DNA of 32,000 bases from Flavobacteriaceae bacterium (GTDB lineage: Bacteria; Bacteroidota; Bacteroidia; Flavobacteriales; Flavobacteriaceae). Positions 6,758 to 24,700 of the stretch are shown here, piece after piece (within the stretch, counting starts at the first letter, position 1; each line of letters starts with the position of its first letter). The stretch covers positions 3,030,001-3,062,000 of the forward strand of contig OZ245049.1 of assembly GCA_965224465.1 (NCBI GenBank). Reading direction: 5' to 3'. Below the pieces are notes generated by a model that ran no database searches, was not told where the DNA came from, and worked only from the letters and a program-made list of their open reading frames with translations. Position numbers and translations under genes: made by a program.

Positions 6758-7854
6758 TAGGAATTATAGGGGGCTACGGAGAAGTAGGAATTAATGCGAC
6801 AAGACTGCTTGTAAAATGGAACAAACAACCAATAAAAGTAGGTGGGAGAAACCCTGAAAAAGCAAAAGAAAAGTTCGAAAAAGAATTCCCGGAAGTATCG
6901 TGGGTTTTTGTTAATGTGTCTGATGATAATAGTTTAGAAGCTTTTATTAAGGGCTGTAATGTTGTTGTAAACTGTGTAGGGCCATCACACAAAGTATCTT
7001 CCAGAGTGGCGAAAATATGTTTGTGTCATAGTTGTCACCATATTGATGCAGGTGTAGACAAAGTATTGGAAGGGATGCATAGCATACAGACGGATGTCTC
7101 TATTAGGTATGGAGCAGGAACAACACCTGGTTTAACGGGTATTTTACCACAATGGATGGCGCAAGAACTTGACACTGTAAATTCGTTGATACTGTTTACA
7201 GGAGCTTTGGATCGGTTTACAGTTTCTGGGGCTGAAGATTATCTAGTAGGTGTTTTAGAAGATGCGAATGAACCTTTAGCGGCTTGGAGAAATGGAAAAA
7301 AGAAATCCTCGGTATTAAAAAGACAATCAGGAATAACAGTTCCCTTTTTTCCTAGAGAAGTAACTGTTTTTCCATTTTTTGATACCGAATCTTTAGTGGT
7401 AGCTAGAAACTTAGACCTGATCAATGGAGATTGGAATTTAGTGATTGACGGTACCCATGTGCCAGCGACTTTAAATAGTGTTCGGTCTCATTTTTATAAA
7501 AACCCAAAAGAAGCCATCAAAAAATTGTGCTTAGCAGCAGATTTAGACCTAGCAGGTAGGCAAACATATTTTAACCTTATTGTTCAGTTGGAAGGTGTCA
7601 AAGACAGAAAACCATGCATAAGAACTGCGATTCTACAAATGGATAGGATGTCGGTTTTAACAGGAGCTATAACAGCAATTGCCTGTATTTCTATCGTAGA
7701 AGATAAAGTCCCCTCAGGAATAGGTGCGGTCGCAGAATTACCGCATCCTGAGAGAATTATGGAGCGTCTTATGGCGTATGGAATAGTAACGGATTTTAAA
7801 ATATTAGAAACTTCGATTGCGGATCTGTTAGAAGAAGTAGAAGGCGAATTATAA
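6754..7854 (+). CDS. Saccharopine dehydrogenase-like NAD(P)-binding oxidoreductase
   Basis: 366-aa ORF. It has an N-terminal Rossmann loop IIGGYGEVG (GxGxxG) and the VVNCVGP motif characteristic of the saccharopine dehydrogenase NADP-binding family. It is translationally coupled to the upstream NRPS (ATGA) and ends in LLEEVEGEL. Confidence 0.6.
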   Translation: MIGIIGGYGEVGINATRLLVKWNKQPIKVGGRNPEKAKEKFEKEFPEVSWVFVNVSDDNSLEAFIKGCNVVVNCVGPSHKVSSRVAKICLCHSCHHIDAGVDKVLEGMHSIQTDVSIRYGAGTTPGLTGILPQWMAQELDTVNSLILFTGALDRFTVSGAEDYLVGVLEDANEPLAAWRNGKKKSSVLKRQSGITVPFFPREVTVFPFFDTESLVVARNLDLINGDWNLVIDGTHVPATLNSVRSHFYKNPKEAIKKLCLAADLDLAGRQTYFNLIVQLEGVKDRKPCIRTAILQMDRMSVLTGAITAIACISIVEDKVPSGIGAVAELPHPERIMERLMAYGIVTDFKILETSIADLLEEVEGEL

Positions 7855-7956: not shown

Positions 7957-9021
7957 ATGATACCAAAAAAAATAAAAACTGTAGTCTGCGGTTCTACATT
8001 CGGACAATTTTATCTCGAATCTTTAAAAAAATTACAAAATCAGTTTGATGTCGTTGGTTTACTGTCTCAAGGGAGTGAACGATCTAAGAAGTGTGCAGAA
8101 CAATACGGGCTTCCTTTATTTACGTCTATAGATCAATTGCCAGCAGATTTAGATTTGGCATGTGTTGTCCTTAGATCTGGAGTTATGGGTGGTAATGGGA
8201 CAGAATTATCACTTCAGTTTATAGAAAAAGGAATACATGTCCTACAGGAGCATCCTGTACATCATAAGGATTTAGCATTGTGTCTAAGAGCAGCACAAAA
8301 AAATAAAGTACGATTTCAAACAGGAGATTTATATGTGCATTTACCAGAGGTAAGGCGGTTTATAAATTGCGCAAAAGCATTATTAAAAGAACAAAAAGCA
8401 ACGTATATAGATGTGGCTTATGCATCTCAGGTTTCTTATCCATTAATGCATATTTTATCGGAGGCATTGCCAGGAACCAGGCCTTGGAAAATTGAAAAAA
8501 CCACTAAAACAGAAGGGCCTTTTACAGTATTGACAGGAAGTATAGGGAAAACGCCTATCATTCTTAGAGCTCATAATCAAATAAATCCAGATGATCCAGA
8601 CAATCATCTTCATTTATTACATCGAATTACAATTGGAGTCGAAGGAGGAAGTTTGTCTTTAAATGATACTCACGGTCCCGTAGTATGGCATCCGAGATTG
8701 CATGTTCCAGAAAATTTAGGAAGTATGAAGGAACTTTCAGCTACAAATGCTGCGTACCTTTTAGAGAATAGTGTACAGGTACTTGGCGAGTACTCGCCAA
8801 CTAATTATACGGAGATACTTTCTAAACAATGGCCCTTTGCTATAGGGGAAGATTTACGATCGATTAAAAAAAGCATGGAGACCAAGAAAGGGTTTCAGTT
8901 GAAGTCTCAAAACGAATTATTAGTTTCCATGCAATGGCAGGAGTTGACCAATGCATTGGGATATCCTTCTTTGGTAGCTCAAAGTAGTCATCAACCTTTA
9001 GCTGTTGATATTTTACAACAA
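7957..9021 (+). other. Thiazolinyl imine reductase domain
   Basis: The domain is collinear with my recollection of Irp3 and PchG. Matching strings are VVCGSTFGQFYL (Irp3 IVGAKFGEMYL), VGLLSQGSERS (VGLLAQGSARS), LACVVLRSGVMGGNGT (IACIVVRSTVAGGTGT), IHVLQEHPVH (VHVIQEHPLH), NPDDPDNHLHLLHR (DPDDPDMHSLIMHR) and GPVVWH (GPVIWS). Confidence 0.8.
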
Positions 9022-10230
9022 GCAGCCATGAAAACTCCGTCAACTTATGAACTTCTGAAGGAAAAAGAGGAGCCAAAGGAGTATCGTGAAGAAGATATTT
9101 ACTCCTGTACAGATGTTTCTGATGGTATATTGAAAAACATAACGATACAGCAGGTCAAAAATTTTGTAGACATATTGGATAAAGCTGTTTTGGATTCGAT
9201 GTTGTTTTCGTTGCAAAAACAAGGAATACTAATTGACAAAAATTTGCAGTATACAATATCTGATATTGTATCAGCTGCAAATATTGCTTCAAAGCATAAA
9301 GGGTTAATTACCTATTGGTTGGATATATTGACAAAAAGAGGATATATAGAGAGGTTAGGTACTGGTTTTTCTATGGGTGATGTAGTAATCACCACCGATA
9401 CTTTTAATAGGAGTTGGGGATTTGTCAAGGATGCTTGGAATAATAAATTAGGTGACCCACTAACAATGGAGTATTTGGTGAAAAATGCAGAGCAGTTACC
9501 AGAGCTAATGAATGATACTCAAAAAGCAGCATTATTATTGTTTCCGGAAGGTCGCTTAGATATTGCTAATTCATTATATAGAGATACCATTACAGCAAAA
9601 TATTTAAATGAGTCGGTATCTGAAGCAGTTTATAGAATTGCAAAATATAGGATGTCAAATTCTTCTTCTTTAAAACAGTTAAAAATACTTGAAATTGGTG
9701 CAGGAACTGGTGCAACAACAGTATCTGTAGCTTCAAAATTACAAGAAACTATTGTAAGTTATATTCATGTAGATTATTTGTTTACAGATGTTTCTGATTT
9801 TTTCTTAAACAACGCAAAGCATCTATTAAAAACCTATCGATGGATAAATTTTCAAGCTTTAGATATTGATCAGGATTTTATAGAACAGCAGGTGAAATCA
9901 GAGAGTTTTGATATAATTATTGCTGCAGGAGTTCTTAATAACGCCGAGAATACAGATAAAGTAATTGAACAAATGATGAATTCTTTAATAAAAGGAGGGT
10001 GGTTATTAATCACAGAACCTACAAGAGAATTTTTAGAAATTCTTATATCACAAGCTTTTATGATGACGATGCCAGAAGACGTACGAAAGGAGGAAAAAAC
10101 AACTTTTTTTACACCTTCTCAATGGAGTAACGTATTTAATAAAGCAGGTGCTCAAAAAATAGTTGTCCTACCAAAAGAAGACAATCCATTAACACCTTTT
10201 GAACAAAAATTATTCATTGTAAAAAAATAG
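7957..10230 (+). CDS. Fusion protein: thiazolinyl imine reductase (PchG / Irp3-YbtU family) + class I SAM-dependent methyltransferase
   Basis: 757-aa ORF; see the two domain entries below. Confidence 0.85.
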   Translation: MIPKKIKTVVCGSTFGQFYLESLKKLQNQFDVVGLLSQGSERSKKCAEQYGLPLFTSIDQLPADLDLACVVLRSGVMGGNGTELSLQFIEKGIHVLQEHPVHHKDLALCLRAAQKNKVRFQTGDLYVHLPEVRRFINCAKALLKEQKATYIDVAYASQVSYPLMHILSEALPGTRPWKIEKTTKTEGPFTVLTGSIGKTPIILRAHNQINPDDPDNHLHLLHRITIGVEGGSLSLNDTHGPVVWHPRLHVPENLGSMKELSATNAAYLLENSVQVLGEYSPTNYTEILSKQWPFAIGEDLRSIKKSMETKKGFQLKSQNELLVSMQWQELTNALGYPSLVAQSSHQPLAVDILQQAAMKTPSTYELLKEKEEPKEYREEDIYSCTDVSDGILKNITIQQVKNFVDILDKAVLDSMLFSLQKQGILIDKNLQYTISDIVSAANIASKHKGLITYWLDILTKRGYIERLGTGFSMGDVVITTDTFNRSWGFVKDAWNNKLGDPLTMEYLVKNAEQLPELMNDTQKAALLLFPEGRLDIANSLYRDTITAKYLNESVSEAVYRIAKYRMSNSSSLKQLKILEIGAGTGATTVSVASKLQETIVSYIHVDYLFTDVSDFFLNNAKHLLKTYRWINFQALDIDQDFIEQQVKSESFDIIIAAGVLNNAENTDKVIEQMMNSLIKGGWLLITEPTREFLEILISQAFMMTMPEDVRKEEKTTFFTPSQWSNVFNKAGAQKIVVLPKEDNPLTPFEQKLFIVKK
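9139..10227 (+). other. SAM-dependent methyltransferase domain (intact motif I)
   Basis: Motifs seen are ILEIGAGTGATT (motif I), acidic FTDVS, FQALDIDQD, FDIIIAAGVLNN and KGGWLLITEP. The N-terminal helical part (WLDILTKRGYIE) resembles NRPS-embedded MT domains. Confidence 0.8.
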
Positions 10231-10233
10231 AAA

Positions 10234-10956
10234 ATGTTGAAATGCAGTCACATATTATGTAAGGTTGATAATATTAAAGCCGTTGTTAAAGATTATGAAT
10301 CTCAAGGGTTTTCTTTGGTCTGGGGGAGTACTCCAGAAAAAGCTCATAATGCCTTATTATGGTTTGAAGAAGGTCCTTATATCGAGTTTTTTCAGTTGCC
10401 GAAAAAGTTTGAAATCTTAAAGTATCCCTTACAATTGTTTTATGGTCGATCCGTTGGAAGGAGGTGGGAGAAATGGGCAAAAGCTACAGAAGGCTGGTGT
10501 GATATAGCATTGGAACCAGCTGAATTTAAAACAGGTTTTAGCCAACATTCACAGGAGTATCCATTAGATATAAAAACAATAAAGAAAGCCTTACAGGTTT
10601 CTGGGATTTCATCTTCTAGGATTGTCCGTAAAAAAAGAGTAAGTCCAGAAGGGGAAGAGGTGAAATTCAGTGTTTTTTGTCCAGATCAAGAGGGATTTCC
10701 TTTTGTTTTTTCTGGGTATAAAACGTCACAACGACCTTTGGAAATAAAACATCCGAATGGAGCTAAAAAAGTAGCATGGGTAAAAGTAGGGGTGAACCCT
10801 AAGGACATCACACAATTTAAGAAGCTAATTAAAGAGGATACATTTATTAAAACAGAAGAGCACATACAAACACATGTTTGTAATGTGGGGCTCGTAGGTT
10901 TGCAATCCAACTTAGATCCAAAATTTTTGCACGGCGCTGTATTTACAGCATTATAA
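10234..10956 (+). CDS. VOC / glyoxalase-like domain protein (function in the pathway unknown)
   Basis: 240-aa ORF. HILCKVDNIKAVVKDYESQGFSLVWG ... AHNALLWFEEGPYIEFFQ resembles the Glyoxalase-like (PF13468-type) pattern H.v..v.dl...GF....G...GT.Nal..f.dg.YlEl. The call rests on memory of the family pattern only. Confidence 0.4.
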   Translation: MLKCSHILCKVDNIKAVVKDYESQGFSLVWGSTPEKAHNALLWFEEGPYIEFFQLPKKFEILKYPLQLFYGRSVGRRWEKWAKATEGWCDIALEPAEFKTGFSQHSQEYPLDIKTIKKALQVSGISSSRIVRKKRVSPEGEEVKFSVFCPDQEGFPFVFSGYKTSQRPLEIKHPNGAKKVAWVKVGVNPKDITQFKKLIKEDTFIKTEEHIQTHVCNVGLVGLQSNLDPKFLHGAVFTAL

Positions 10957-10975: not shown

Positions 10976-13900
10976 ATGTTATCAACTACTACAAATGCCA
11001 CCTTAGATTTACTAGTAAGACTTAGAAAAGACGGAATTAAACTTTGGGAAGAAAACGGAAAATTAAAGTTTAAAGCACCCAAAGGGCTCCTTCAACCAGA
11101 AGATCTGGAAGCGCTAAAAAAATATAAAACAGAGGTAATTGAACAATTAAAATTAGAAAGTAAATCAATTACTGTAGTTGTAAATCCAGCTTCAAAATTT
11201 GATCCTTTTCCATTAACAGATGTACAGTCAGCTTACTTGTTGGGGCGTAACGAAGTATTTGATTATGGAGGTGTTGCCTGCCATATTTATTTAGAATTAA
11301 AATATTCACATTTAGAAAAAAAGAGGGTACAAGAGGTTTGGGAAATGCTTATTTCTAGGCATGAAATGTTAAGAGCAACTATAGATAAAGAAGGACATCA
11401 ACGTATTATGGAGTTTCATCCAGAATTCGAATTAACGTATACAGATGCGAGCACTTGGACAGAAAAGGAAAAGGATGTAGCCTTAGATGAAATTCGGGAG
11501 GATATGGGGCACCGTGTTTATGACACTTCTAGTTGGCCTTTGTTTGGAATAGGAGTGACTCAAACATCAGAAGATGCTATTCTTCATTTCTCTATGGAAT
11601 TTTTGATTGCAGACTGGGCGAGTATCTGGTTGCTCTTGTCAGAGTTCGAAGCTCTTTATACATCTTTAGAGACACCTTTACCTAAGTTAAACCTTAGTTT
11701 TAGAGATTATTTGATTGCAGAAAGAGGACTGAGAGAAACCATGTCTTATGCAAAAGATAAACGCTATTGGTTGGATCGAATTCACAGTTTACCAGCAGCA
11801 CCAGATCTTCCTTTAGCAAGAGCACATAAACCTTCTGGAAAAGGACGTTTTACACGTCGTTTTATGGAATTAGAGATGTCTGAATGGCAACGGATAAAAG
11901 AACAGAGTCAACAATTGGGATTAACACCAACAACTGTTATTATGACTGCCTATGCAGCGGTTATAGAGCGCTGGAGTCGCACAAAAAAGTTTTGTTTAAA
12001 TCTTACGGTATTAAACCGATTGCCTTTGCATGAAGATGTAAATATTATTGTAGGAGATTTTACATCGGTCAGTTTATTAGAGGTGGATTGGAGTACGGAT
12101 CAATCGTTTAAAGAACGTGCAAAAACCTTAAATAATCAGTTGTTTGATGATTTAGATCACCGTTTATTCTCGGGTGTTGAGGTGATGAGAGAAATTGTTA
12201 GACAGAGAGGTAGGGATGCAGCTCTTATGCCGTATGTGTTTACGAGTGCTATTGGACTGACAAATGCTGGAGAAGGAAATCAAAGAAAAGGAAAATTAGG
12301 CGGATATGGAATAAGTCAAACGCCGCAGGTATTTATAGATTGTCAGGCAATGGATACCCCAGGAGGCTTGCATATCAATTGGGATATTAGAGCGGGTGTT
12401 TTTCCAGATGATCTGATCGATGATATGTTTAATGCATTCAAGGGATTACTACAAAATTTAGTGACAAAAGACGCGACTTGGAAAGAGAATGTTTGTATTG
12501 ATATACCAAAATGGCAAGAATTGGAAAGGCAGGTAATTAATAATACACAAGCCCCTTTATCAAACAACGTGTTGCATAAAAAAATTGTAGAGCAGATCGT
12601 AAAAACACCAGATGCACCAGCAGTTTTTGATTCTGAAGGACAAACAACGTATCGAGAACTTGGATTAAAAGCAAGCGCAGTGTCCGAAGCGTTGGAGACT
12701 TTAGGATGTAAGGCGCAGGATAAAGTGGTTATTTCTATGGATAAGGGAGTGGGTCAGGTTATTTCTGTATTAGGTGTTTTGTCAACGGCTGCGGTTTATG
12801 TACCGATAGATGTGTTTCAGCCTACCGAGAGAATAAATGCCATGATAGCACATGCGGATATTCGTTTTGTGATTACAGATAAGAAAAATAAAACCAAATG
12901 GGCAGCGCATATCCATGTAATTTATATAGATGAATTAGAACTAAAAACCGAAATCACCTTAAAAACTACGGCAGATCCGACCTTGCCTGCGTATGTAATT
13001 TATACTTCAGGTTCTACAGGGCAACCAAAAGGAGTGGTGATTAATCACATCGCTGCTCTAAATACGATTGCTGCTATTAACAAGCAGTTTCTTGTGCAGC
13101 CCCAAGACAGCGTATTAGGTCTTTCGCAATTAGGTTTTGATTTATCAGTATTTGATATTTTTGGAGTACTCTCTGTTGGAGGAGCGATTGTTTATCCTGA
13201 ACAAGAACGGAAAAACGACCCTTCACATTGGGTAGCATTGATTCAGAAATACGACGTTACTATTTGGAATACAGTACCAGCTTTAATGCAAATGTTAGCT
13301 ACCTATTTACTTACAGAAACCAATATCAAAATACCAAAATTAAGACTGGCATTGCTTTCTGGAGATTGGATTCCGTTAACATTACCCGATATTTTAGTGA
13401 AACGCTTGCCACAGCTAGAGGTAATTAGCCTTGGAGGTGCAACAGAGGCATCTATTTGGTCCATTTATCATATTTATAAAGGATTAGAATCGGATTGGAA
13501 TAGTATTCCTTATGGTAGGCCTTTAACAAATCAAGGGTTTAGAGTACTGGATAGTACCCTAAGAGATTGCCCTGTTTGGACAATCGGAGAATTGTTTATT
13601 ACAGGGGATGGACTGGCTGATGGATATTTAAACGAGATCGCATTGACAAAAAAGTCGTTTTTTAATCACCCTGTAGATGGGCAACGGATGTATCGTACTG
13701 GAGATTTAGGACGCTATACTCCAGGAGGAGAAATAGAATTCTTAGGGCGTGAGGATAATCAAGTTAAAATAAGAGGACATCGTATAGAATTAGGAGAGAT
13801 AGAATCTGCATTGTTAAAACATCCAAAAGTTAGTGCAGTAGGAGTTGTGGCAGATGGTTCTGGGCAAGAGAAATCTTTATTAGGAGTGGTAGAACTTATG

Positions 13901-15916
13901 CATAAAGATAAGCTTGCAAAGAAAAAAGGAAAGGAGAGTGGCAAAAAAATACGGGATGAGGTAAGTGAAAAAATTAAGAATTTTAATACAGAAGAAAATA
14001 GAGAAGCGGATAAGTATGCTGATTATCTAGGTTTAATCCTACAGACAATAGGTAAAAATAATTCAGAGAACCATCCTCTTCGAATACTACAAATAGGAGA
14101 GAAAGGAAAAGAAAATTTGGATGCAGTTGTACAACATTTAGAGGGTATATCTTTTGAGTATCTATATACGCATTCTGACATTGCTGTTTTAAAAGAATTT
14201 TCATTAAAGTACGCAGAGGAAGAGGGCATTAGATTTGAAGTTTTTGATAGTAATATAGCCTACAGGACACAAGGATTTGAGCCCAATAGTTTTGATATTA
14301 TTATTGCGATAGGGTTGGTAGCTAATAGAACTATTGTAAAAGAATTAATTCGTGCAAACGGTTGGTTTGTTAATGGTATAGAAAATACGGATTCTTCTTT
14401 AGTGATAACAGATACAAAATTAAAGGTGCCAGAACATAAATTATTTCTAACGCAGGTAAAAGAAGACCAATATTTTGTAAGTGCCTCAGAGCTGTCTCGT
14501 TTTTTATCGAAACATGTTCCAGAATATATGATTCCCAGCCATCTTCAGGTTGTAGATACATTACCAATTACCAAAAACGGAAAAATGGATCGTAAAACTA
14601 TTGCAAAGTGGAGACCTTATCATGTAAATGGAGCGATCATTGGGAGTACAGATCACGCCTTAGATACCTTAGAAATTGCATTGTCAAAACAATGGGCTGA
14701 TGCGTTAAATATGAAAGGGATAGGTAGATTACAAAATTTTTATGACTTAGGAGCAGATTCTTTGATTATGGCTAAGATGGCAGGAGAATTAAGAGATGCC
14801 TTGGCAAAAGAAACGCCTCCTGTAAAGATTGCTTATGATGCGCTATTGAGACAGATGTTAAACTTCCCTACAATAGCTGGGCTGGCAAATTTTATCAGAT
14901 CAAAAAAAGAAGGGGCAGATGCTCTTTGTAGTACAGCAACACAGGAAGATGGAGATAGTACTTCTGCAAGTAATGGGGTACTGACTTCTTATGGAAATAG
15001 TAATAACGGATTACTTCGTGTAGTGTTTCATGCAGGAATAGGTACAATGAATTGTTTTCTTCCATTGTTAGGAGAATTAGAGAAACAGAATTTAGGCCCA
15101 ATTGTAGGTATTACGGTGAAGGACACGGAAGTGTATTGTGATTTAGAACCAGAGGAATTGATAGAATTGGTTGCGGAAGATTACGCCACACGATTATTAG
15201 AAACGGGACATAAAAAAATGCAGTTGATAGGCTATTGTATGGGAGGTCAGTTTGCCATTGAAGTTGCAAGACGTTTGGTAGAAAATGGAATAGAAATCGT
15301 AGACCTTGTATTGGTAGATAGTCATCCTGTATATATAGATGTGAAAGATGACCTGGTTATAGAATCATTATTTGTTCCTAACCTAGGAGTTTCTATGGAA
15401 CAAGCTGGTTTTGGTGGGGCTGATCCAATGGATATTGGGAGCGCATTTATGCATATTATAGCAGAAAATAAAGGAGTGATTCCTAATGGCTCACCGGGGA
15501 AACTTACGGGAGATAAAGGCATGGAAGCGGTGAGTACTTTATTTAAAAAACTTTCATCTTTTGATATGAGAACGCGTTTTACAGCTTATGTAAATGCTAT
15601 TTATGATGTGACTGGAGAAAAAATGGAAGTAGAAATGGCAGAGGGCTTATTTAGAATGTACCGCCAGAGTTATATTGCTTCTCAATTTATTCCACTTCCA
15701 TATATGGGGGACATACGGTTTCTAATCGCTACGGGACAATCTGGGTTTTTACCAGGGACAGTGAAAAAAACAATCGATTGCTGGACCAATGCTTGTCTTG
15801 GAGAATTGACTGTTATGGAAATTAAAGGAGATCACTTTACATGTATAGAACCTCCTCATTTAGCACATTTGGCAACAATTATTAGAGAACCTCTTCTTAT
15901 TCCAATAGAGTCTTAG
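10976..15916 (+). CDS. Terminal NRPS: beta-hairpin docking domain - Cy - A(Cys, vestigial MT insert) - PCP - TE
   Basis: 1646-aa ORF; motifs are listed in the domain entries below. Confidence 0.92.
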   Translation: MLSTTTNATLDLLVRLRKDGIKLWEENGKLKFKAPKGLLQPEDLEALKKYKTEVIEQLKLESKSITVVVNPASKFDPFPLTDVQSAYLLGRNEVFDYGGVACHIYLELKYSHLEKKRVQEVWEMLISRHEMLRATIDKEGHQRIMEFHPEFELTYTDASTWTEKEKDVALDEIREDMGHRVYDTSSWPLFGIGVTQTSEDAILHFSMEFLIADWASIWLLLSEFEALYTSLETPLPKLNLSFRDYLIAERGLRETMSYAKDKRYWLDRIHSLPAAPDLPLARAHKPSGKGRFTRRFMELEMSEWQRIKEQSQQLGLTPTTVIMTAYAAVIERWSRTKKFCLNLTVLNRLPLHEDVNIIVGDFTSVSLLEVDWSTDQSFKERAKTLNNQLFDDLDHRLFSGVEVMREIVRQRGRDAALMPYVFTSAIGLTNAGEGNQRKGKLGGYGISQTPQVFIDCQAMDTPGGLHINWDIRAGVFPDDLIDDMFNAFKGLLQNLVTKDATWKENVCIDIPKWQELERQVINNTQAPLSNNVLHKKIVEQIVKTPDAPAVFDSEGQTTYRELGLKASAVSEALETLGCKAQDKVVISMDKGVGQVISVLGVLSTAAVYVPIDVFQPTERINAMIAHADIRFVITDKKNKTKWAAHIHVIYIDELELKTEITLKTTADPTLPAYVIYTSGSTGQPKGVVINHIAALNTIAAINKQFLVQPQDSVLGLSQLGFDLSVFDIFGVLSVGGAIVYPEQERKNDPSHWVALIQKYDVTIWNTVPALMQMLATYLLTETNIKIPKLRLALLSGDWIPLTLPDILVKRLPQLEVISLGGATEASIWSIYHIYKGLESDWNSIPYGRPLTNQGFRVLDSTLRDCPVWTIGELFITGDGLADGYLNEIALTKKSFFNHPVDGQRMYRTGDLGRYTPGGEIEFLGREDNQVKIRGHRIELGEIESALLKHPKVSAVGVVADGSGQEKSLLGVVELMHKDKLAKKKGKESGKKIRDEVSEKIKNFNTEENREADKYADYLGLILQTIGKNNSENHPLRILQIGEKGKENLDAVVQHLEGISFEYLYTHSDIAVLKEFSLKYAEEEGIRFEVFDSNIAYRTQGFEPNSFDIIIAIGLVANRTIVKELIRANGWFVNGIENTDSSLVITDTKLKVPEHKLFLTQVKEDQYFVSASELSRFLSKHVPEYMIPSHLQVVDTLPITKNGKMDRKTIAKWRPYHVNGAIIGSTDHALDTLEIALSKQWADALNMKGIGRLQNFYDLGADSLIMAKMAGELRDALAKETPPVKIAYDALLRQMLNFPTIAGLANFIRSKKEGADALCSTATQEDGDSTSASNGVLTSYGNSNNGLLRVVFHAGIGTMNCFLPLLGELEKQNLGPIVGITVKDTEVYCDLEPEELIELVAEDYATRLLETGHKKMQLIGYCMGGQFAIEVARRLVENGIEIVDLVLVDSHPVYIDVKDDLVIESLFVPNLGVSMEQAGFGGADPMDIGSAFMHIIAENKGVIPNGSPGKLTGDKGMEAVSTLFKKLSSFDMRTRFTAYVNAIYDVTGEKMEVEMAEGLFRMYRQSYIASQFIPLPYMGDIRFLIATGQSGFLPGTVKKTIDCWTNACLGELTVMEIKGDHFTCIEPPHLAHLATIIREPLLIPIES
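10988..11149 (+). other. TubC_N-type (beta-hairpin) N-terminal docking domain
   Basis: LDLLVRLRKDGIKLWEENGKLKFKAPKGLLQPEDLEALKKYKTEVIEQL fits the G(V/I)xLWxExGxLxxxAPxGxLxxxL pattern of the TubC/EpoB N-terminal docking domains. Confidence 0.7.
11198..12490 (+). other. Heterocyclization (Cy) domain 3 with ExxxxDxxS variant motif
   Basis: FPLTDVQSAYLLGR is present, and SQTPQVFIDCQ follows later. The catalytic-site motif reads EFLIADWAS (E208, codon gaa at 11597-11599) instead of DxxxxDxxS. Confidence 0.85.
12563..14605 (+). other. Adenylation domain, cysteine-type code (DLFNLSLIWK by manual extraction)
   Basis: Cores are AYVIYTSGSTGQPKG, FDLSVFDIF, IWNTVPAL, LALLSGDW, SLGGATEASIW, YRTGDLGRY, GREDNQVKIRGHRIELGEIE and PITKNGKMDRK. 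Confidence 0.8.
13898..14470 (+). other. Vestigial methyltransferase core inserted between A8 and A10 (SAM loop ablated)
   Basis: ILQIGEKGKE stands where ILEIGAGTGA is expected. YTHSD, FEVFDSNI, FDIIIAIGLV and ANGWFV mirror FTDVS, FQALDIDQ, FDIIIAAGVL and KGGWLL of the intact MT at 9139-10227. The insert is only ~190 aa. Confidence 0.5.
14657..14890 (+). other. Peptidyl carrier protein domain
   Basis: FYDLGADSLIMAKM contains Ser1262. Confidence 0.85.
15008..15895 (+). other. Type I thioesterase domain with cysteine at the nucleophile position
   Basis: The nucleophile elbow is GYCMGG (ggc tat tgt atg gga ggt, 15230-15247), where GxSxG is expected. LVLVDSH (Asp) and GDHFTCIE (His) are conserved. 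Confidence 0.8.
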
Positions 15917-15960
15917 CATTGAAAGAGGATGATAGATACACTAAAATAAACAGTAAAAAA

Positions 15961-17307
15961 ATGAACAATCAAACACAAAAAGAATTTATACTTACGGGAA
16001 AAATGTGGCCTGTTATGTGGAAACTTTCATGGCCAGCTATTATAGCAATGGTTTTATATGGATTTAATGTATTGCTGGATGCAATTTTTGTAGGAACTTT
16101 TGTAGGTGAAAATGCATTGGCAGGGGTTTCAATTGTATATCCTTTGGCGTCTTTTACTATGGGAATAGGTTCCTTGGTAGGCGTTGGAGCAGGGTCTCTA
16201 TTAAGTATTGCTTTAGGGGCGAATGATATAGAAAAACAAAAACGTCTTTTGGGAAATTTTAATTCTTTGAATATTATATGTACCGTTATTTACATGATTC
16301 TGGCATTGATTTTTGCAGAACCGTTAGTAAAAATGATGGGAGGTACAGGTTCTCCACTGGAGTATGGAGTTAGCTATTTTAGAATCAGTATAATTGGTTC
16401 GTTTTTCTGGATTTATGGATTGTCTGCAAATATGGTGGTTAGAGCAGAAGGAAAGATGAAAAAAGCTGCTCTGATGATGGGAATTGGCTTGGTTGTAAAC
16501 ACCGTGTTTAATTATATTTTTGTTGTACTCCTAGACTATGGAGTGGCGGGAGCTTCTTGGGCATCAAATATTGGGATGTTTATATATTCTTTACTAGGAT
16601 ATCTATATTTTAGAAAAGGTAAAACATCCTTTCCTGCTTTTCCAAAAACATTGTATTGGGATAAAGAAATAATCAAATCTATTTTCTCTATGGGAGCTCC
16701 TTCATTGATTATGACGGTGATGACTATTGTACAGGCAATTGTTATCTTTAATGCATTAGCGAACTATGGATCTATTTTTGAAATTGCATTTTATGGTGCT
16801 ACCTTTAGGATCATAAATTTCTTAATGACGCCACTTTATGGACTTATGCGTGCATTACAACCCGTAGTCGGAATTAATTATGGTGGAGGGCACTACCGAA
16901 GAGTGATACAGAGTTTTTGGGTTTTTACAATCACCGGTGGATTTATAATACTTCCTATCTGGCTAATAATGATGGCACTTCCCGATATCGCATTAGGAAC
17001 TATGTTAGTCAATAGTAGTTTTACGACAGAAAGTATATGGAATTTTAGAATGATTATTTCTGTACTCCCTTTTATGCCAATTGTTTTTATGGCAATGAGC
17101 TTTTTTCCTGCGATTGATAAAGGAAAACCCGCAGCAATTATTGGAATCGCAAGGCAATTAATTTTTTATGTCCCCATGATGCTTATTTTACCGTCTATAT
17201 TTGGAACACAATCTATATACTGGGGATCCGCCTTAATAGATGTAGTGATTGTTGTCTATACAATGGTGTTGGTACTGTTGGAATTTAGGCGTTTAAAAGC
17301 ATTGTAA
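15961..17307 (+). CDS. MATE family efflux transporter
   Basis: About 12 predicted hydrophobic helices. The N-terminus WKLSWPAIIAMVLYGFNVLLDAIFVG and the internal repeat SMGAPSLIMTVMTIVQAIVIF are typical of the MATE/NorM family. ATG at 15961 is preferred over the TTG at 15919 listed in the ORF track. Confidence 0.8.
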   Translation: MNNQTQKEFILTGKMWPVMWKLSWPAIIAMVLYGFNVLLDAIFVGTFVGENALAGVSIVYPLASFTMGIGSLVGVGAGSLLSIALGANDIEKQKRLLGNFNSLNIICTVIYMILALIFAEPLVKMMGGTGSPLEYGVSYFRISIIGSFFWIYGLSANMVVRAEGKMKKAALMMGIGLVVNTVFNYIFVVLLDYGVAGASWASNIGMFIYSLLGYLYFRKGKTSFPAFPKTLYWDKEIIKSIFSMGAPSLIMTVMTIVQAIVIFNALANYGSIFEIAFYGATFRIINFLMTPLYGLMRALQPVVGINYGGGHYRRVIQSFWVFTITGGFIILPIWLIMMALPDIALGTMLVNSSFTTESIWNFRMIISVLPFMPIVFMAMSFFPAIDKGKPAAIIGIARQLIFYVPMMLILPSIFGTQSIYWGSALIDVVIVVYTMVLVLLEFRRLKAL

Positions 17308-17382
17308 TTTCAAAATAGTTTACAGTGGTTATTTGGAACCGAGTATAGGATTAACTTATGTAGATGCATTACCTAGTGTATT

Positions 17383-18009
17383 ATGATAGAAATAAGGCTG
17401 TTTAATTGTGATGATTTTGAAGATTCATTATATCAGGAATTATTATATTCAGTATCCAAAGAGATACAAAAAAAACTGAATGGCTTTGTTTTTATAAAAG
17501 ACCGAAAACGGAGCCTTTTGGGGAAATTAATGGTTCGGAAATATTGTATTGAGAATAACATGCCCTTTGATTGGACTGATTGGAAGATCGATGCTTTTGG
17601 AAAGCCATTCTTATCTAATGGCTTGTTTTTTAACATATCGCATTCGGAAAAATATGTTTGTGTTGCCTTTTCTAATACTTGTATTGGGGTAGATATAGAA
17701 ATTGTAAAACCATTAAAGGTAGATGGATTGTTGCATTTTTTTCATCAAGACGAGCAAGATTATATGCAGTCTTCCCAGGGTAAATTAGATACTTTTTATA
17801 CCATTTGGACCAGAAAGGAAGCCTATTTAAAAGCGAAAGGAGTAGGCTTGTCAGAGTCCTTAAACAAAGTGAGTTGCTTAAGCAATTGTATTGTGCAAGA
17901 AAAAGTGTGGTTCATACATACCTTAGAGGTTATTTCTGGATATAAAACGGCTATTTGCACTCCTCTAGCTTTTGTAAATATCCAGATTGTCTTAAACCCC
18001 AACTTGTAA
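17383..18009 (+). CDS. Sfp-type 4'-phosphopantetheinyl transferase
   Basis: Motifs are FFNISHSEKYVCVAF (motif 1), IGVDIEIV (GxDxE) and WTRKEAYLKAKG (W/FxxKEAxxK). Confidence 0.85.
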   Translation: MIEIRLFNCDDFEDSLYQELLYSVSKEIQKKLNGFVFIKDRKRSLLGKLMVRKYCIENNMPFDWTDWKIDAFGKPFLSNGLFFNISHSEKYVCVAFSNTCIGVDIEIVKPLKVDGLLHFFHQDEQDYMQSSQGKLDTFYTIWTRKEAYLKAKGVGLSESLNKVSCLSNCIVQEKVWFIHTLEVISGYKTAICTPLAFVNIQIVLNPNL

Positions 18010-18026: not shown

Positions 18027-18060
18027 ACCATCAATAATTTAAGGATTATTGATGGTTTTA
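18027..18060. terminator. Hairpin between the convergent operons; likely intrinsic terminator for the plus operon
   Basis: A perfect 12-bp stem (accatcaataat at 18027-18038, attattgatggt at 18045-18056) has a 6-nt loop and is followed by ttttaataatgttttt. The right arm encodes the last codons (..TINNP*) of the minus-strand thioesterase gene. Confidence 0.5.
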
Positions 18061-18788
18061 ATAATGTTTTTCAGGTAATTTTCACCTAGATTTTGCACGA
18101 AAAAATGATCCCCCTTAAATTCCTTTATCGTAAAATTATCTCTTGTAAGTTCTTTCCAGTAATTCATTATGGGAAGGGTAGCATCAATGTCTTCTGCTGC
18201 CGCATGTGCAACAATAGGAATGTTTATTTTTTGACTTTTATAGCTAAAATTTTCGTGTAAACGTAAATCACTTCGAATCATAGGAATTAAGAATGCGATC
18301 AATTCCTTATTGTCCAAAACTTCTTTTGGTGTCCCGTTTAAGAGTCTAAGTTCTGCAACCAATTCTTCATCACTCAATTTGCTGTGAAACTCAGAAGTAT
18401 CCATTTTATGCGGAGCATGTCTTCCAGCAACAATAATTTTTTCTGGAGAGATATTGTATTTTTTTTTCAATTGAAAAGCGGTTTCAAAAGCGATGACAGC
18501 GCCCATACTATGACCAAAAAAAGAAAAAGGAGTATGACTGTCAATTACAGGGACAATGTTTTTCATCAACTCATGTACCAAAAGGTTAAAATCTTCTATA
18601 CAGGATTCCCCAATTCTACTTCCTCTTCCGGGGAGTTCAATCGGGATAAATTCTATGGAAGTATCGTGTGTAACCCAATGTTTAAAGATACTAGAACCTC
18701 CTCCTGCATAATGAAAACAGAATACTTTAGCCTTAGATTTTTTTGAATTTCGAATTCCGTAAGGAAACCATTTATTGTTATAATTCAT
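18039..18788 (-). CDS. Type II (editing) thioesterase
   Basis: The 249-aa ORF carries FCFHYAGGGSSIFKHW, GHSMGAVIAFE (GxSxG) and GDHFF. It starts 11 nt downstream of the megasynthase stop. Confidence 0.85.
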   Translation of the reverse strand: MNYNNKWFPYGIRNSKKSKAKVFCFHYAGGGSSIFKHWVTHDTSIEFIPIELPGRGSRIGESCIEDFNLLVHELMKNIVPVIDSHTPFSFFGHSMGAVIAFETAFQLKKKYNISPEKIIVAGRHAPHKMDTSEFHSKLSDEELVAELRLLNGTPKEVLDNKELIAFLIPMIRSDLRLHENFSYKSQKINIPIVAHAAAEDIDATLPIMNYWKELTRDNFTIKEFKGDHFFVQNLGENYLKNIIKTINNP

Positions 18789-18799
18789 AGGTGTTTTTT

Positions 18800-21700
18800 T
18801 TAGTGGTTGCTTTTTTCAAGTTGAGGGATCTCTATATATTGATCCCAGTCTTCCAGTGCTATAAATTGATGTAGCATATTTTCATAGGTACGAACCATCT
18901 CTTCGATCCACTTGTTTTCAAATACGTTATCTACAATATCCCAGTTGATATGAATGGAGCCATTTCGTTCATATACCTGATGATCCATTGCTACTTGTGG
19001 CGTTTGACTAATGGCAAATACTTCTTTTAGTTCTGGTGGGTAATGGGTGTTTTTTTCTTGAGTTTCACCAAACAGTAAACTGGTAAATACGATGGGCATT
19101 AAGGCTTTTCCAGGACTGTCTTTTCCTAATCTTTTTAAAATATCCATTCCATCCTGAGTTCGATATTCTACAGCTTTCCATAGCTGTTGCTGTACCGTTT
19201 CAATTTCTTCTAGGATTGTTTTGTTATCATTTTTAAAATAAGAAATCAAGGTAACATTTGTAAAGTCTCCAAGGATTTTAGGAACATCTTTATGAATTGG
19301 AAACCTATTGAAAATAGTAAGGTTTATGGTGAAATCAGGATTTGTACTCCAGTGAGCTAGTACCTTCATAAAAATAGTACATATTACCGCAGAAGGAGTA
19401 AATCTATATTGTTTTATTTTGGAGAATAATTGTGTTGATTTTTCTGTATCCAATACAATTTTCCAACGTTTAAAAAATGGTTTTTCGATGTCTTTAAAAG
19501 CTGTTTTAAGAGGTAGGTTTGGAGCAGGGGGAATTTGTTTTATATGTGCATTCCAAAATTGTTGCGCTTCCGAGATATTACTTTGCGTATGCAGCCATTT
19601 TTCTTCTTGATTCATGTATTCTTTGAATGTGAATTTTGGGGTCGCAATTTCCTTTCCATAATAAGAAGCAAAAAGTTCTTGTACAACCATTTCTGTACTC
19701 GAAGCATCTAATAATAGACAGTCAAAACTGAAGTGTATTCTAGAAATATCAGTGCCTATCTGACTTAATTGAAGGTGAAACATAGGCCAGGTTCCAAGTT
19801 GGTAATTATGGTGAGACCATTTATTTCGAATAGTTTCTAATGCTTGTTCTGATTGTATTTGTCTTACAGGAATTGTAAAGAAAGGAACTTTTTTCATTAA
19901 TTGTTGGCTGGCATTACTGTACACTTTTGTACGTAACATCTCATGTCTTTTGATCACACCATTCCAAGCGTGTTCTAAACGTTTTGGATCCAACTGATGA
20001 CATTCTAACTCTAGGTAATAATGCGTGTTGATGTTTCCAATTTCAAAATTAGAGGACCTTCCAAATAAGTATGCTAATTGTATAGGTGTTAATTTAAAAG
20101 GTTGATATTTTCTAAGGATATGAGTAACTTGCTCCTGTTTTTTTGGTTGGATTAAAACGTGTAAAAGAGCATTTTTAGAAGCTTTTATTTTTTCTAACAA
20201 TGTTTTTGAGAGTGCGCCTTTGGGGGCTTTAAATTTCAATTTCCCTTCTTTCACATAAAGTAAGATCTCCTTATCTTTACATGTATTTAAAATAGCATCA
20301 CATGTTTTTAGAGAATCTTTATCTGCTGTTGTGTCACTGCGTAATTGTAGTTGTTCTATTTCCTGCGCAAAATCTATTTTCCCTCCTGCCATGGTGTGTA
20401 GGTAGAATTGATGAATAGAAAGGTTAAAAGACGCTTTTATTTCGTCAAAATCGTACGCTGTTAATGATGAACATCCAATATTTAAAGAAGGTGATTTACT
20501 CTCTAATAACTGACTTAGGATTCCGCTTTCTATAAAACAAATTTGTAAAGATTTGTCTTGATGGATAGGGTAGACTGCATTTAGGTCTGCAACAAAATGG
20601 ACTAAGAAGGAAGTGTTAGGCATCATGTTTCTAAAAGAAATAGATGCTATTTCTGTGATATTCCCTAACTTTATTAGAGAATGTGCCTGTACGTCTAGGT
20701 AATAGTTCCCTTGTTCGATCCCTTCAATACCTTTGTTAAAAATAGTGAGATAGGTTTGTATAGGGTAGGTTTCGCTTAGAGAATTGTAGTTGTAGCTTTT
20801 TTCTCCATAAATATTTTGTTGCAAACAGAAAGAAATAAATTTTTTGAAATTTAGATTTTCAATAGGGGAGTTTAGATAGTTGTTAAAACTATTCGTGATT
20901 GTTCCTAAAGGATTTTTTTCTTCTAAAGGAAGGTCTAAAGAAATGCTATTTTGTAATGATAAATCAGTTCTGTGTGCGCTTATAGTTTCCTTAAAGGAAA
21001 TGTATTCTTCATAATTTTCTATGGTGGTGATATTGTTTAGATATGCTTTCTGTTCTGTAGAATACAGACTAAATGGCGATGCTGCCTTGTCTGAAGGGAT
21101 CTCTTTTTCTTCAAAAGAAAATCCTTTATCGTCATAGTATGCTATAAGTTGCTTTATAGATGAATACCGAATCATTTCTCCTACAGAAGGTCTCTCTGTA
21201 AAGTGTATTTCTAACTCGTTCGCTAATTTTATCATGGCGACAGAAGAAACTCCCAAATCGGAAAAATTATCTTTAGACTTTAATTTAGGAAGTCCTAAAA
21301 TGTTTTTTATTAGGTTTAGTACAGGGTGATGCTCTTCTGCGGTATTTGAAGATATAGGTGTATTGTCACTGTTGTATTTATGATAGTATTTCAATAATTT
21401 TTTTCTGTCTACTTTTCCATTAGCACTCATCGGATAAACATCTAAACAGAGAATTTTTTCAGGTATAAAATAGTCAGGGAGCTGTGTTTTTAAGTGCATT
21501 TTGAGTTCCGTTTCAGAAAATTCTGAAGCAGGACATTTTACAAAAGCAATTAGTTTTTTATGCTCCATCTTGTCTCCAATGGGGATAATTATTGGATCGG
21601 TATTTGTTGCGTATTTTCTGAAAGCTGCTTGTATTTCTCCTATTTCTACGCGGTATCCATTTATTTTTAGCTGTGTATCTTTTCGACCTAGAAATTCGAT

Positions 21701-24700
21701 GATGTTGCCTTGACGGTAGCGGCCATAATCTCCAGTATCATAGAGTCTTTGTTGCAGTTCTTTTTCAAAAAAGAAAGCACTGTTGCTGCGTTTTTTTTCT
21801 TTTAGATATCCTGTAGCGAGCCCTTTACCTGCAATGTGTAGTTTTCCTTCTACCCATTCTGGGCACGGTCTATTAAATGTATCTAGGATATAAAATTCCT
21901 GATTTGCCAAAGGGTATCCATACGGAATGGATTTCCAGTCTGGATCAAGGACGTCTACATGGTAGTAGTTGGACCAGATAGAAGCTTCCGTAGCTCCTCC
22001 CATGCTTGTTAATGTTGCATGGGGGATTGCAGTGTTTATTTTTTGAATAAGCCCTAAGGGAATCCAGTCTCCAGAATGGATGATTTTACATAAGGAGAGG
22101 TCTTTACCTACCGTTGGATTTTTTAACATATAATCGCAGTAAATATCCATTAATGCAGGAACAGAATTCCAGATACTTACTTGGTGTTGGGAAGAAAGTG
22201 TTTTCCAACATTTAGGGTCGATACGCTCTTCTTCTGTTGGCAATACCAGCGTTCCTCCTGCATGTAGCAGTCCAAAAATGTCATATACAGAAAGGTCAAA
22301 ACTTAAGGAAGAAACTCCTAAAACACGGTCTTTTTCTGTGATTTTTAGTTTGTTGTTTACATCGATTATGGTATTCATCGCTGCTTTGTGTTGAATACAG
22401 ACTCCTTTTGGAATGCCGGTAGAACCAGAGGTGTAAATGATATATGCTAATTCTGAGGGATTGATGGCTATTGATGTATAAAGATCCTTTATAGTATCAA
22501 TATTCGGAGGCGTAAATTGTTTGACATCTAGTTTGCCAGTATCTAAAATTTGATCTGTAAAAATAGCAATTGCTTCGGATTGTTTTAGTATTTCGATTGT
22601 TCTGTTTATCGGTTGATTATATGTAAACGGAATGTAAATAGCTCCTATTTGTAAGATTCCCAGAACCACCGCAATTTGATCAAAAGATTTAGCCATTTGT
22701 AGGGCTACTTTATCTCCCTTTTTAAGGGAATTTTTTTGAAGTAAAACAGAGACTTGATTTGCTCTTTTGATTAGCTGTTTATAGGAGTATTCTTTTTGCT
22801 TGTAGATAATAGCAGTACTCTTTGGTGTTTGGAGTGCATTTGCGTAGATTTTTTCGTGTAATAACAAATTTCCAATTGGTGAAAAAGTGTTGTTTGCTTC
22901 TTGCTGAACTGCCAATTGTTTGGAAGTTCTTAAATCTGTTAAACTTTTGTCCCAGAACGTATTGTCTGTGATGGAAAGTTGTACAAGCTCGGTATATTTC
23001 TCGAACATTGCAGCTATCATATCCCTTGGGAAAACAGCATCTAAAGTATCCCACGATAAGGTAACGCCTCCATTTTGATGGTAGATTTGATGATCTATCC
23101 AAACTTGTGGAGTAGAAGAAACGGACCAGTTTATTTGGTTTAAAAACCCTTGTTGCTCATCTTGTTTAAGAGTATCAATGCCAAGGGCGCTAGTAAATAC
23201 AAAAGGATACATGCGGTTTTTGGTATCGGATTGGCTATTGAGTTTTTTTACAAATTCAATAGCCGAGTAGGTACTGTTTTCTAAGTCTGTATGCATTTGT
23301 GCTTGTATCGTAGTCCCGTTTTTTCCAGTAGCTTGTTGCTTTCTCTCAATTTCAACCAAGGTTAGTTGTGTAAAATCTCCTATGATTTCGTTGATTTGAG
23401 GATGCACATTATCTCTATTAAATACAGTGAGCATAACTGCAAAATGCGAACCACCACCCCAGGCAGAAAGCACTTCGGTATAGAGCGTTAGCAATGCAGC
23501 AGAAGGAGTCAGGTTTTTTGTTGCTGCAGATTTTATAAAAGAGTTCCATGATATTGGATCTATCCAATGCTCTCTTCTTTTGAAATGTCCTTCCACCTGT
23601 TTTTTTCCAGTATCTTTAACAGGGAGTTGTGGTGCAAGTGGGAAATGTTGTATTCTGTTTGTCCAGTATTGTTCGGCTTGATGGTATGTGTTTGTAAATG
23701 TTCGTTTGTTGTGATAATGAAGGTAATCTTTATAAGATATTTCTAAAGGATTTAAGGAAACTCCTGTGTATAAAAGATATAAGTCTTTCCAAAATATGAA
23801 GAGACTTAAAGCATCGGCAATAAGAAAATCTATCGTAAAATGGATGCGGTGCTTGTGATTTTCCAGCTCAGAAATTCGCATTTCGAACATAGGTTCTCCC
23901 AAAGGAATAATCTTGGTAGCCATTTCATCTCTTAGTTGTTGTAAATGCTCTTTTAAAGATGGTATATCCGTTTTTTTGTAGATTATAAGAGGCGTCGGGA
24001 TGGATGCTTTGATTTGTTGCTTGCCATCTTTAGAAATTATACACCGCAACATCTCATGTCTTTTGATGAGGTTTTGCAAGGCTCTATCAAAATGTTGAAT
24101 GCTTAGGTTTTCAATGTCCATTTCAAAATACGCACTGCAACTTACACCTCCCCAGTCCATTTCGTGATTTCGTCCTGCCCAATAGGCATATTGAATTTCA
24201 TTTAAAGGAAAGGATTCATGTCGTTGTTTTGGGAATGCCTGAAAGATTGAAACAGGTGTGTTATTTATTTCTTTGAGCGTGTTATGTAAGGCTTTATGCA
24301 CGATCTCAGTCCATTGGTTTATAGTGCTTTGCTTTAAAAACAAGGCGGGTTTTAAAGTAATAGCAAGGTCTTTTTTCCAAAAGGTGATTAAACGAATAAT
24401 TACAATAGAATTAAGTCCTAATAATAGTAAATTTTCATCATTTTGTAAATCTTCTTCTTCTATTTCCCATTCCTTTATAAGTGAAGTTCTTATGTAATTT
24501 TTAAGTTCAGAAATGTTTGTAAAAGTGTTGATAGTTACTTCCTGTTCTTCTTCAATATCTTCTTCGTTTTCTGGCTTTATAAGTGGGGTGTTTTTTATAA
24601 AATCCAAAATTGCAGGACTGTGTTCTTTCTCTTCTTTTGTAAGAGAAGAATTGTTGATGTTTTCTTTTATCTTTTCCCAAACAGTTGTTTTAGGAAGCGT

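Follow-up and report, generated by a model that had tools for sequence, protein, structure and literature searches.

A cysteine-type terminal thioesterase of the PchF/SrbD clade and its co-occurrence with a VOC gene in a Flavobacteriaceae gene cluster

Catalytic triad of the terminal thioesterase

A 32,000-nucleotide stretch of a Flavobacteriaceae genome (GenBank assembly GCA_965224465.1, contig OZ245049.1, positions 3,030,001 to 3,062,000; hereafter, the window) carries a biosynthetic gene cluster whose terminal nonribosomal peptide synthetase (NRPS) ends in a type I thioesterase (TE) with Cys in place of the usual Ser at the nucleophile position. Judged from sequence, this Cys (C1421) truly serves as catalytic nucleophile in a type I TE that is active and has a Cys-His-Asp triad, and the domain can be assigned with high confidence to the normal membership of a Cys-type clade, the PchF/SrbD clade, which comprises the terminal TEs of dock-Cy-A-(methyltransferase)-PCP-TE modules. 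The Cys is real but ordinary for the family of this TE; the new lead is its co-occurrence with a gene for a VOC family protein, which lies directly upstream of the NRPS gene in the window. The features on which the identification of the nucleophile rests, together with the second TE of the cluster, are as follows.

10976 to 15916, plus strand: terminal NRPS with the domain order TubC_N dock-Cy-A-PCP-TE (Pfam architecture, A-domain code)
14966 to 15916, plus strand: type I TE domain, an alpha/beta hydrolase with a helical lid of about 110 residues (Pfam PF00975, AlphaFold2, Foldseek)
15230 to 15247, plus strand: nucleophile elbow G1419-Y-C1421-M-G-G1424, with the Cys codon TGT at 15236-15238
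15317 to 15319, plus strand: Asp1448 (LVLVDSH), triad acid at 'position I' after strand beta6 (alignment, AlphaFold2 model)
15833 to 15835, plus strand: His1620 (GDHF), catalytic histidine (alignment to solved TE domains)
18039 to 18788, minus strand: type II TE with a canonical GHSMG at 18501-18515

The elbow is encoded as GGC TAT TGT ATG GGA GGT, in frame with the NRPS open reading frame (1646 aa). PF00975 matched the domain at 55.5 bits (cut-off, 26.4), with the TE starting at aa 1350, C-terminal to the PP-binding domain at aa 1238-1306. In HMMER alignments to solved TE domains, C1421 was placed on the nucleophile Ser of Vlm2 (GHSLGG), NocB (GWSFGG), tautomycetin TE (GHSSGG) and fengycin TE (GYSAGG), D1448 on the acid after beta6 and H1620 on the catalytic His. 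An AlphaFold2 model of the TE (ten-sequence alignment; mean pLDDT of 88.6) positions C1421 between strand 84-90 and helix 93-106 (domain numbering), which is the classical nucleophile elbow, and D1448 immediately after strand 110-117. The best Foldseek matches of this model are type I TE domains, among them Vlm2 TE (E = 1.5e-13). A nucleophile elsewhere in the domain was considered and rejected, as GYCMG is the sole G-x-[S/C]-x-G motif within the TE region and sits on the elbow.

Orthologues of the TE, 69-75% identical, were found in Aquimarina aquimarini Aq135, Aquimarina sp. I32.4 and A. hainanensis, the three loci, all from Aquimarina, that were returned by a scan of one genome per species. 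All three read MQLIGYCMGGQ, with the Cys codon being TGC in one and TGT in the others. This synonymous difference with the Cys kept indicates that C1421 is under purifying selection and, as the three genomes are independent, excludes a sequencing error. An Aquimarina-like flavobacterium is the most probable source of the window. Moreover, 36 further TE columns are invariant in the nine closest homologues (48-54% identical) from a word-indexed search.

The original prediction, made from the letters alone, had proposed a GYCMGG elbow with Cys for Ser, a retained Asp and His, a domain active rather than decayed and a type II TE of the normal GHSMG type. These parts were confirmed: in-frame sequence, alignment and model agree on the elbow, the Asp and the His both fall on canonical triad columns, the GHSMG is read in the type II TE, the TGT codon is upheld by the orthologues and, on the sequence and the model together, the TE looks active. 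That the TGT is an artefact, or that the TE is inactive with release taken over by the type II TE, is barely credible. Decay has a precedent, since other residues occupy the nucleophile position in 8 of 155 relatives and Ala is found there in EqbG (PMC3672683), but the Cys is conserved across the Aquimarina genomes, the triad and the 36 further columns are intact, and the corresponding Cys is essential in SrbD of the sorangibactin pathway (PMC10127202).

Nucleophile state across the clade

A HMMER search of 1.84 billion representative proteins returned 772 relatives of the TE at E <= 1e-3 and 110 at E <= 1e-30. The best 150 of the 772 were aligned with nine proteins from the word-indexed search, and 155 representatives were scored. 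Among these closest representatives, the nucleophile column held Cys in 117, Ser in 30 and another residue in 8; thus Cys is the majority state, and the view of an exceptional Cys-for-Ser swap on a par with ObiF and SulM is not supported. The catalytic His was found in 147 of the 149 relatives covering its position, and the position-I column held Asp in 96 representatives, Ser in 51 and another residue in 8. All 30 Ser-type relatives have the position-I acid (28 Asp and 2 Glu), whereas it is lost in 47 of 116 Cys-type relatives, 46 of which have Ser instead (PchF included). Confinement of acid loss to Cys-type members is expected if a thiol, which needs less help from the acid, is the working nucleophile. 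The natural Asp-to-Ser replacement also agrees with the Cys-dependent TE of MacB, in which D116S is tolerated and leaves the enzyme active (PMC13288461).

Nearly all full-length members start with a TubC-type dock and are either about 1400-1450 or about 1800-1850 aa long, two length classes that fit Cy-A-PCP-TE without or with an embedded methyltransferase. Their source records, which include Streptomyces, Mycobacterium avium, Brevibacillus and Arachnia, label them 'pyochelin synthetase' or, generically, NRPS. In a neighbour-joining tree of 130 dereplicated TE domains, with the catalytic columns excluded from the distances, Fitch parsimony placed Cys at the root and counted about 18 changes of nucleophile state (Cys, Ser or other); Ser arises at several distinct points of the tree. 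Alignment and tree taken together, Cys is read as the default state of the PchF/SrbD clade and as probably the ancestral one.

The share of Cys-type TEs among known TEs has been put at about 2%, and the papers on sorangibactin, bulbichelin and macolacin describe them as 'rare'; here they are concentrated in one large clade, in which they make up about three quarters of the members. For Cy-A-PCP-TE modules, GxCxG is the expected state, the textbook pyochelin synthetase included. For annotation, a GxCxG elbow in a terminal TE is by itself a sign neither of beta-lactone or beta-lactam chemistry nor of decay.

The eight relatives with G, D, E, H or R at the nucleophile position (P0091, P0106, P0110, P0115, P0124, P0130, P0135 and P0138) are probably decayed or repurposed TE domains in the PchF sub-clade. 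EqbG of the equibactin pathway, with its reported Ala at this position (PMC3672683), may be comparable to them.

Characterized relatives

A Burkholderia cenocepacia locus, found by tblastn of plasmid and chromid records, has an NRPS, a PchG-like reductase, an ABC exporter and a TonB receptor in the pch layout, with a TE that reads GYCSGG. A search with this TE returned proteins named by NCBI 'pyochelin non-ribosomal peptide synthetase PchF [Pseudomonas aeruginosa]', which read LLGYCSGGL, IVSSYR and GGHFDC in that order. The window TE is 28% identical to P. aeruginosa PchF over 283 aa (E = 1e-30), with Cys aligned to Cys, and the GYCSGG of PchF means that the archetype of this module type is itself a Cys-TE. 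For PchF, the release of pyochelin has been described as a hydrolysis (PMC10510592). A Cys by itself is no predictor of unusual release chemistry. The two systems share a Cys-specific A domain, a trans-acting PchG/Irp3 reductase and the Cys nucleophile, and PchF is a Cy-A-methyltransferase-PCP-TE module; they differ in that PchF has Ser (IVSSYR) at the position of the acid, where the window TE has Asp, has no VOC or saccharopine-dehydrogenase partner nearby and belongs to a different sub-clade of the tree.

The sorangibactin cluster, described as coelibactin-like, offers a second comparison. Its terminal NRPS SrbD (1814 aa; HC-A-MT-CP-TE, where MT is a methyltransferase) has an active-site Cys, called 'rare' there, and both C1586A and C1586S abolish the product (PMC10127202). 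Homocysteine or methionine has been proposed as an external nucleophile in this pathway, giving a C-terminal thiolactone (PMC10127202). The SrbD sequence recovered from mutagenesis primers, QLIGY(C)LGGLLAIEVAALLER, is identical at 14 of 21 residues to the window sequence QLIGYCMGGQFAIEVARRLVEN, a comparison limited to these 21 residues, and gives the elbow GYCLGG; the fragment was used from QLIGY onward, as the printed forward primer is apparently one base short upstream of the motif. The srb cluster further encodes (PMC10127202, Table S1) a saccharopine-dehydrogenase-like SrbE (371 aa), a Gfo/Idh/MocA-methyltransferase SrbF and an Irp3-like reductase SrbI, as well as the VOC protein SrbJ (237 aa), which is essential and has no assigned function (PMC10127202). 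Equivalents of SrbE, SrbF/I and SrbJ are encoded immediately upstream of the window TE gene.

6754 to 7854, plus strand: SrbE-like NADP oxidoreductase of the saccharopine-dehydrogenase family, 366 aa (Pfam PF03435)
7957 to 10230, plus strand: Irp3/PchG-type thiazolinyl imine reductase fused to a methyltransferase, SrbF/SrbI-like (Pfam GFO_IDH_MocA, Irp3-like_C, Methyltransf_12)
10234 to 10956, plus strand: SrbJ-like VOC / Glyoxalase_3 protein, 240 aa, directly upstream of the TE-bearing gene (Pfam PF13468)

The window cluster differs from that of sorangibactin in its starter, which is a fatty acyl-AMP ligase (FAAL)-ACP followed by KS-AT-ACP instead of salicylate, and in having a MATE exporter instead of siderophore receptors. 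A catalytic Cys and a thiolactone end are also reported for AntB (anthrochelin) and BbchF (bulbichelin) (PMC13573596), and the free-acid congeners sorangibactin D and bulbichelin B are known (PMC10127202, PMC13573596). The main text on the bulbichelin cluster makes no mention of a VOC gene. The bilothiazole cluster was considered as an equivalent of the window cluster and rejected for its different architecture.

Two Cys-type TEs outside this group were also compared. AB3403 of Acinetobacter baumannii (PDB 4ZXH) has a Cys nucleophile and an Asp at position I (PMC11298585) and is matched in the PDB (family-profile E = 0.0027; Foldseek rank 36) as the sole TE of Cys type, but it terminates a C-A-PCP rather than a Cy-A-PCP module, and its weak similarity to the window TE is no better than that of Ser-type TEs. 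The MacB TE of macolacin shares the Cys-His-Asp triad, with an acid position that tolerates Ser, but is macrocyclising, clusters with Ser-type peptide cyclases and lies outside Cy-A-PCP-TE modules (PMC13288461).

The Cys-TEs ObiF and SulM, to which the original prediction had likened this domain, are a different matter. They have in common with it a thioester acyl-enzyme and the Cys nucleophile, the latter being the one point in favour of a strained-ring TE of their kind, in which intramolecular attack would yield a beta-lactone, beta-lactam or beta-thiolactone. In both, however, a loop that follows beta7 provides the triad Asp ('position II', a RifR-like triad), and the motif of SulM is Gln-Cys-Asn (PMC11298585, PMC6668435). 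The window TE has its acid, Asp1448, at position I, no acid in the stretch that follows beta7 (IRFLIATGQSG) and a Tyr-Cys-Met motif. Neither ObiF nor SulM was among the 24 single-sequence PDB matches (E <= 1), the 43 family-profile PDB matches (E <= 10) or the top 50 Foldseek matches, in which many Ser-type TEs are present. The substrates would differ as well. The thioester of ObiF and SulM is resolved by the beta-hydroxyl or beta-sulfamate of the last residue (PMC11298585, PMC6668435). The terminal A domain of the window has the Cys code DLFNLSLIW, which is the PchE-type Cys code tabulated in PMC3672683; with such an A domain after a Cy domain, the last Cys should be turned into a thiazoline, the substrate end predicted from the domains, leaving no free beta-nucleophile for closure of a four-membered ring. 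Beyond the TE fold in general, kinship with ObiF and SulM is thus not borne out in Asp position, motif, PDB matches or Foldseek matches, strained-ring formation by analogy to them is not supported, and such a TE is considered very improbable here.

A VOC gene beside Cys-type thioesterases

Among the loci compared, Glyoxalase_3 genes were seen directly upstream of Cys-type TE genes (L004, L013, L017 and L018) and not beside the Ser-type TEs of Clostridium butyricum plasmid pNPD4_2, two Brevibacillus loci and L019. For a systematic count, 49 metagenome loci were fetched with the TE alignment, and all loci were scored by tblastn with the VOC, saccharopine-dehydrogenase-like, Irp3-like and FAAL proteins of the window; loci were dereplicated at 90% identity, adequate flanks were required and windows of +/-10 kb were scored. 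Across all lineages, 15 Cys-type TEs were found with and 8 without a VOC gene, against 0 and 6, respectively, for Ser-type TEs (Fisher p = 0.006, in counts that ignore phylogeny). Restricted to relatives at least 41% identical, the corresponding numbers were 9 and 2 against 0 and 6 (Fisher p = 0.002, with the same proviso). All 17 VOC-positive lineages have a Cys-type TE and none a Ser-type one, the Ser-type, VOC-less lineages occupy at least four separate places of the tree, and a VOC-family profile HMM had no match at E <= 1 in any Ser-type locus. In a forward test, two loci were fetched through homologues of the VOC protein and not through the TE; both carry Cys-type TEs. As Cys-type lineages without the gene exist, the rule is that Ser occurs only where VOC is absent, and not that Cys needs VOC. 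The saccharopine-dehydrogenase-like gene stands next to both Cys- and Ser-type TEs and is therefore not the correlated factor.

Three matched pairs of clusters with the same gene order illustrate the association: (i) L021 (VOC, Cys, Asp) and L025 (a 49-nt gap at the place of the VOC gene; Ser, Glu), whose NRPSs are 62% identical; (ii) Paenibacillus apiarius L070 (VOC, GYCLGG) and Brevibacillus L015/L016 (no VOC, GYSLGG), with NRPSs 64.5% identical; (iii) the window/Aquimarina cluster (VOC, Cys) and that of C. butyricum pNPD4_2 (no VOC, Ser). Within the pairs, the main difference observed in gene content is the VOC gene, whose presence goes with the identity of the nucleophile. Matched pairs of this kind thus exist in culturable genera, namely Paenibacillus/Brevibacillus and Aquimarina/Clostridium butyricum.

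By itself, the VOC protein offers no hint of its function. Its homologues are named 'VOC family protein', and its AlphaFold2 model is a generic two-module VOC fold (pLDDT of 88.4) with an uncharacterised S. aureus protein (3P8A) as the best structural match in the PDB. For both the VOC protein and the saccharopine-dehydrogenase-like protein, neither PDB sequence searches nor an NCBIfam search gave a match. Residues H6, E51, C89, D90, E94, H173 and N175 are invariant in the family (19 homologues, 36-65% identical to the window protein), a pattern compatible with a metal site plus a conserved Cys.

Several of the loci have features of their own. The C. butyricum plasmid pNPD4_2 (L014; NZ_CP013238.1, 820 kb) carries a cluster syntenic with that of the window, with a Ser-TE and no VOC gene and with genes for a phosphopantetheinyl transferase, A-PCP, saccharopine-dehydrogenase-like protein, Gfo-methyltransferase, NRPS-TE, FAAL, PKS-NRPS (PKS, polyketide synthase) and type II TE. 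A related siderophore-type cluster is present on a clinical IncFIB plasmid of Klebsiella pneumoniae, pINF237_01-VP (L013; CP032834.1, 63668-87688), with a Cys-TE 50% identical to that of the window, a VOC protein, an Irp3-methyltransferase, a BBE-type FAD oxidase, ABC exporters and a TonB receptor. The marine metagenome locus L004 (136-5661 and 10001-11233) has two Cys-type TEs, one ending a 1841-aa NRPS and the other forming, after a free PCP and a VOC gene, a stand-alone TubC_N-dock-TE protein of 410 aa. In the VOC-positive cluster of L071, one of the two loci of the forward test, a PLP enzyme of a Cys/Met-metabolism family (Cys_Met_Meta_PP / Met gamma-lyase; 16421-17566) is encoded directly after the Cys-TE NRPS gene and may be relevant to a homocysteine-type cap.

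Release mechanism

As predicted from the domains, the finished chain would be a fatty acyl-polyketide with three Cys-derived heterocycles, ending as a thiazoline-4-carbonyl thioester on the PCP. By homology to SrbD, ObiF and MacB-type chemistry, it would be passed to C1421 by an energy-neutral transthioesterification, giving a thioester acyl-enzyme. Off-loading from C1421 could then be coupled to the adjacent SrbJ-like VOC protein and need the thioester acyl-enzyme, as in the sorangibactin family. Such a VOC-coupled termination, and not plain hydrolysis, is the reading that we consider most likely, with about an even chance of being correct; it is placed first as, in otherwise syntenic clusters, the VOC gene stands out as the main observed difference in gene content and tracks the nucleophile. 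Under it, the VOC protein would act on, or jointly with, the thioester acyl-enzyme at termination, and the product terminus would differ from that of the Ser-type, VOC-less clusters, with homocysteine capture in the sorangibactin family as the precedent. A stronger proposal, that the SrbJ-like VOC protein works as a functional pair with the Cys nucleophile in thioester-dependent, non-hydrolytic off-loading, is offered tentatively and is, on balance, doubtful. A possible route for such a pair would be thiol-thioester exchange with homocysteine and then an S-to-N acyl shift, which would give the capped end of sorangibactin, anthrochelin and bulbichelin.

A number of observations weigh against VOC-coupled termination. 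PchF, a Cys-TE of the same clade, is able simply to hydrolyse, and eight Cys lineages, PchF among them, are without the VOC gene. When counted as about four independent Cys-to-Ser events, the association is only modestly significant. The link of the window TE to SrbD consists of the 21-residue fragment and the gene content, no homocysteine- or methionine-related gene is found among the window open reading frames, the VOC fold gives no functional clue, and deletion of SrbJ gave no informative intermediate (PMC10127202).

The next most likely reading, with a chance somewhat short of even, is ordinary hydrolysis through the same thioester to the free thiazoline-4-carboxylic acid; here the Cys would reflect clade history, the VOC protein would act elsewhere and the association would come from shared ancestry. 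Beyond PchF itself (PMC10510592), this agrees with a Streptomyces pyochelin-type locus in which a PchG-like reductase, ABC exporters, a type II TE and a salicylate synthase are all that accompanies the Cys-TE, with the free acids sorangibactin D and bulbichelin B, which show that related TEs can hydrolyse, with the many Ser/Cys interchanges in the tree, and with the syntenic Ser-type clusters, which presumably make the same backbone; the absence of homocysteine and methionine genes from the window points the same way. Yet it would leave the lack of any Ser-type TE beside a VOC gene, given 17 VOC-positive lineages, and the tracking of the nucleophile in three matched syntenic pairs to shared history, and in SrbD, from a pathway with the same accessory set, the change of Cys to Ser abolished production (PMC10127202). 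The suggestion in the original prediction that release may not be simple hydrolysis thus survives in part: it is possible by way of the sorangibactin-like gene set, while the reasoning from the Cys and from ObiF and SulM is unsupported.

The association with VOC bears on two questions raised by sorangibactin, namely what SrbJ does and why Ser cannot stand in for the Cys. Were the functional pair true, SrbJ would be assigned a role and the inactivity of SrbD C1586S would be explained; the product of the Aquimarina cluster would be a lipid-tailed, C-terminally capped thiazole/thiazolidine compound; and a VOC gene beside a Cys-TE would predict capped products genome-wide, with free acids from the Ser-type, VOC-less sister clusters.

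Other features of the cluster

The remaining genes of the cluster are as follows.

3092 to 6757, plus strand: free-standing A domain (Cys code DLYNMSLIW) with an embedded methyltransferase, followed by a PCP
15919 to 17307, plus strand: MATE exporter (Pfam)
17383 to 18009, plus strand: Sfp-type phosphopantetheinyl transferase (Pfam)
18800 to 27415, minus strand: PKS-NRPS, KS-AT-ACP-Cy-A(Cys)-PCP-(unassigned, about 270 aa)-internal TubC_N-Cy, 2871 aa
27418 to 29535, minus strand: FAAL fused to an ACP, starter module

Genes for a P450, a TonB receptor and a salicylate synthase are absent from the window. In the terminal NRPS, a degenerate methyltransferase-like insert of about 200 aa interrupts the A domain (about 13853-14470; aa about 960-1165) at the site of the methyltransferase of PchF-type proteins; Pfam detects no methyltransferase in it, and its SAM motif (ILQIGEKGKEN) is degenerate. 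This insert is missing entirely from the orthologue of A. hainanensis (1470 aa). The Cy domain of the same protein reads EFLIADWAS (11597-11623; aa 208-216), that is, ExxxxDxxS versus the canonical DxxxxDxxS, which is kept by both Cy domains of the PKS-NRPS.

Docks of the TubC_N type are normally N-terminal in a protein. That of the PKS-NRPS is internal (20147-20293, minus strand; aa 2375-2423), preceded by the PCP and unassigned region and followed by the C-terminal Cy domain, and looks like the result of a fusion of two once-separate subunits. The relatives L017 and L071 have an identical domain list. The stretch of about 270 aa between the PCP and this dock (about 20306-21118, minus strand; aa about 2100-2370) has no Pfam match; by its place and size it is a candidate for a thiazoline oxidase (Ox) domain.

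At its left border, the cluster is flanked by two unrelated genes: one (17-1168) encodes a NosD-like beta-helix protein with a C-terminal CxxCH haem motif, and the other (1347-2174) a GH114 lipoprotein with a Bacteroidota-type signal (LFSCSK).

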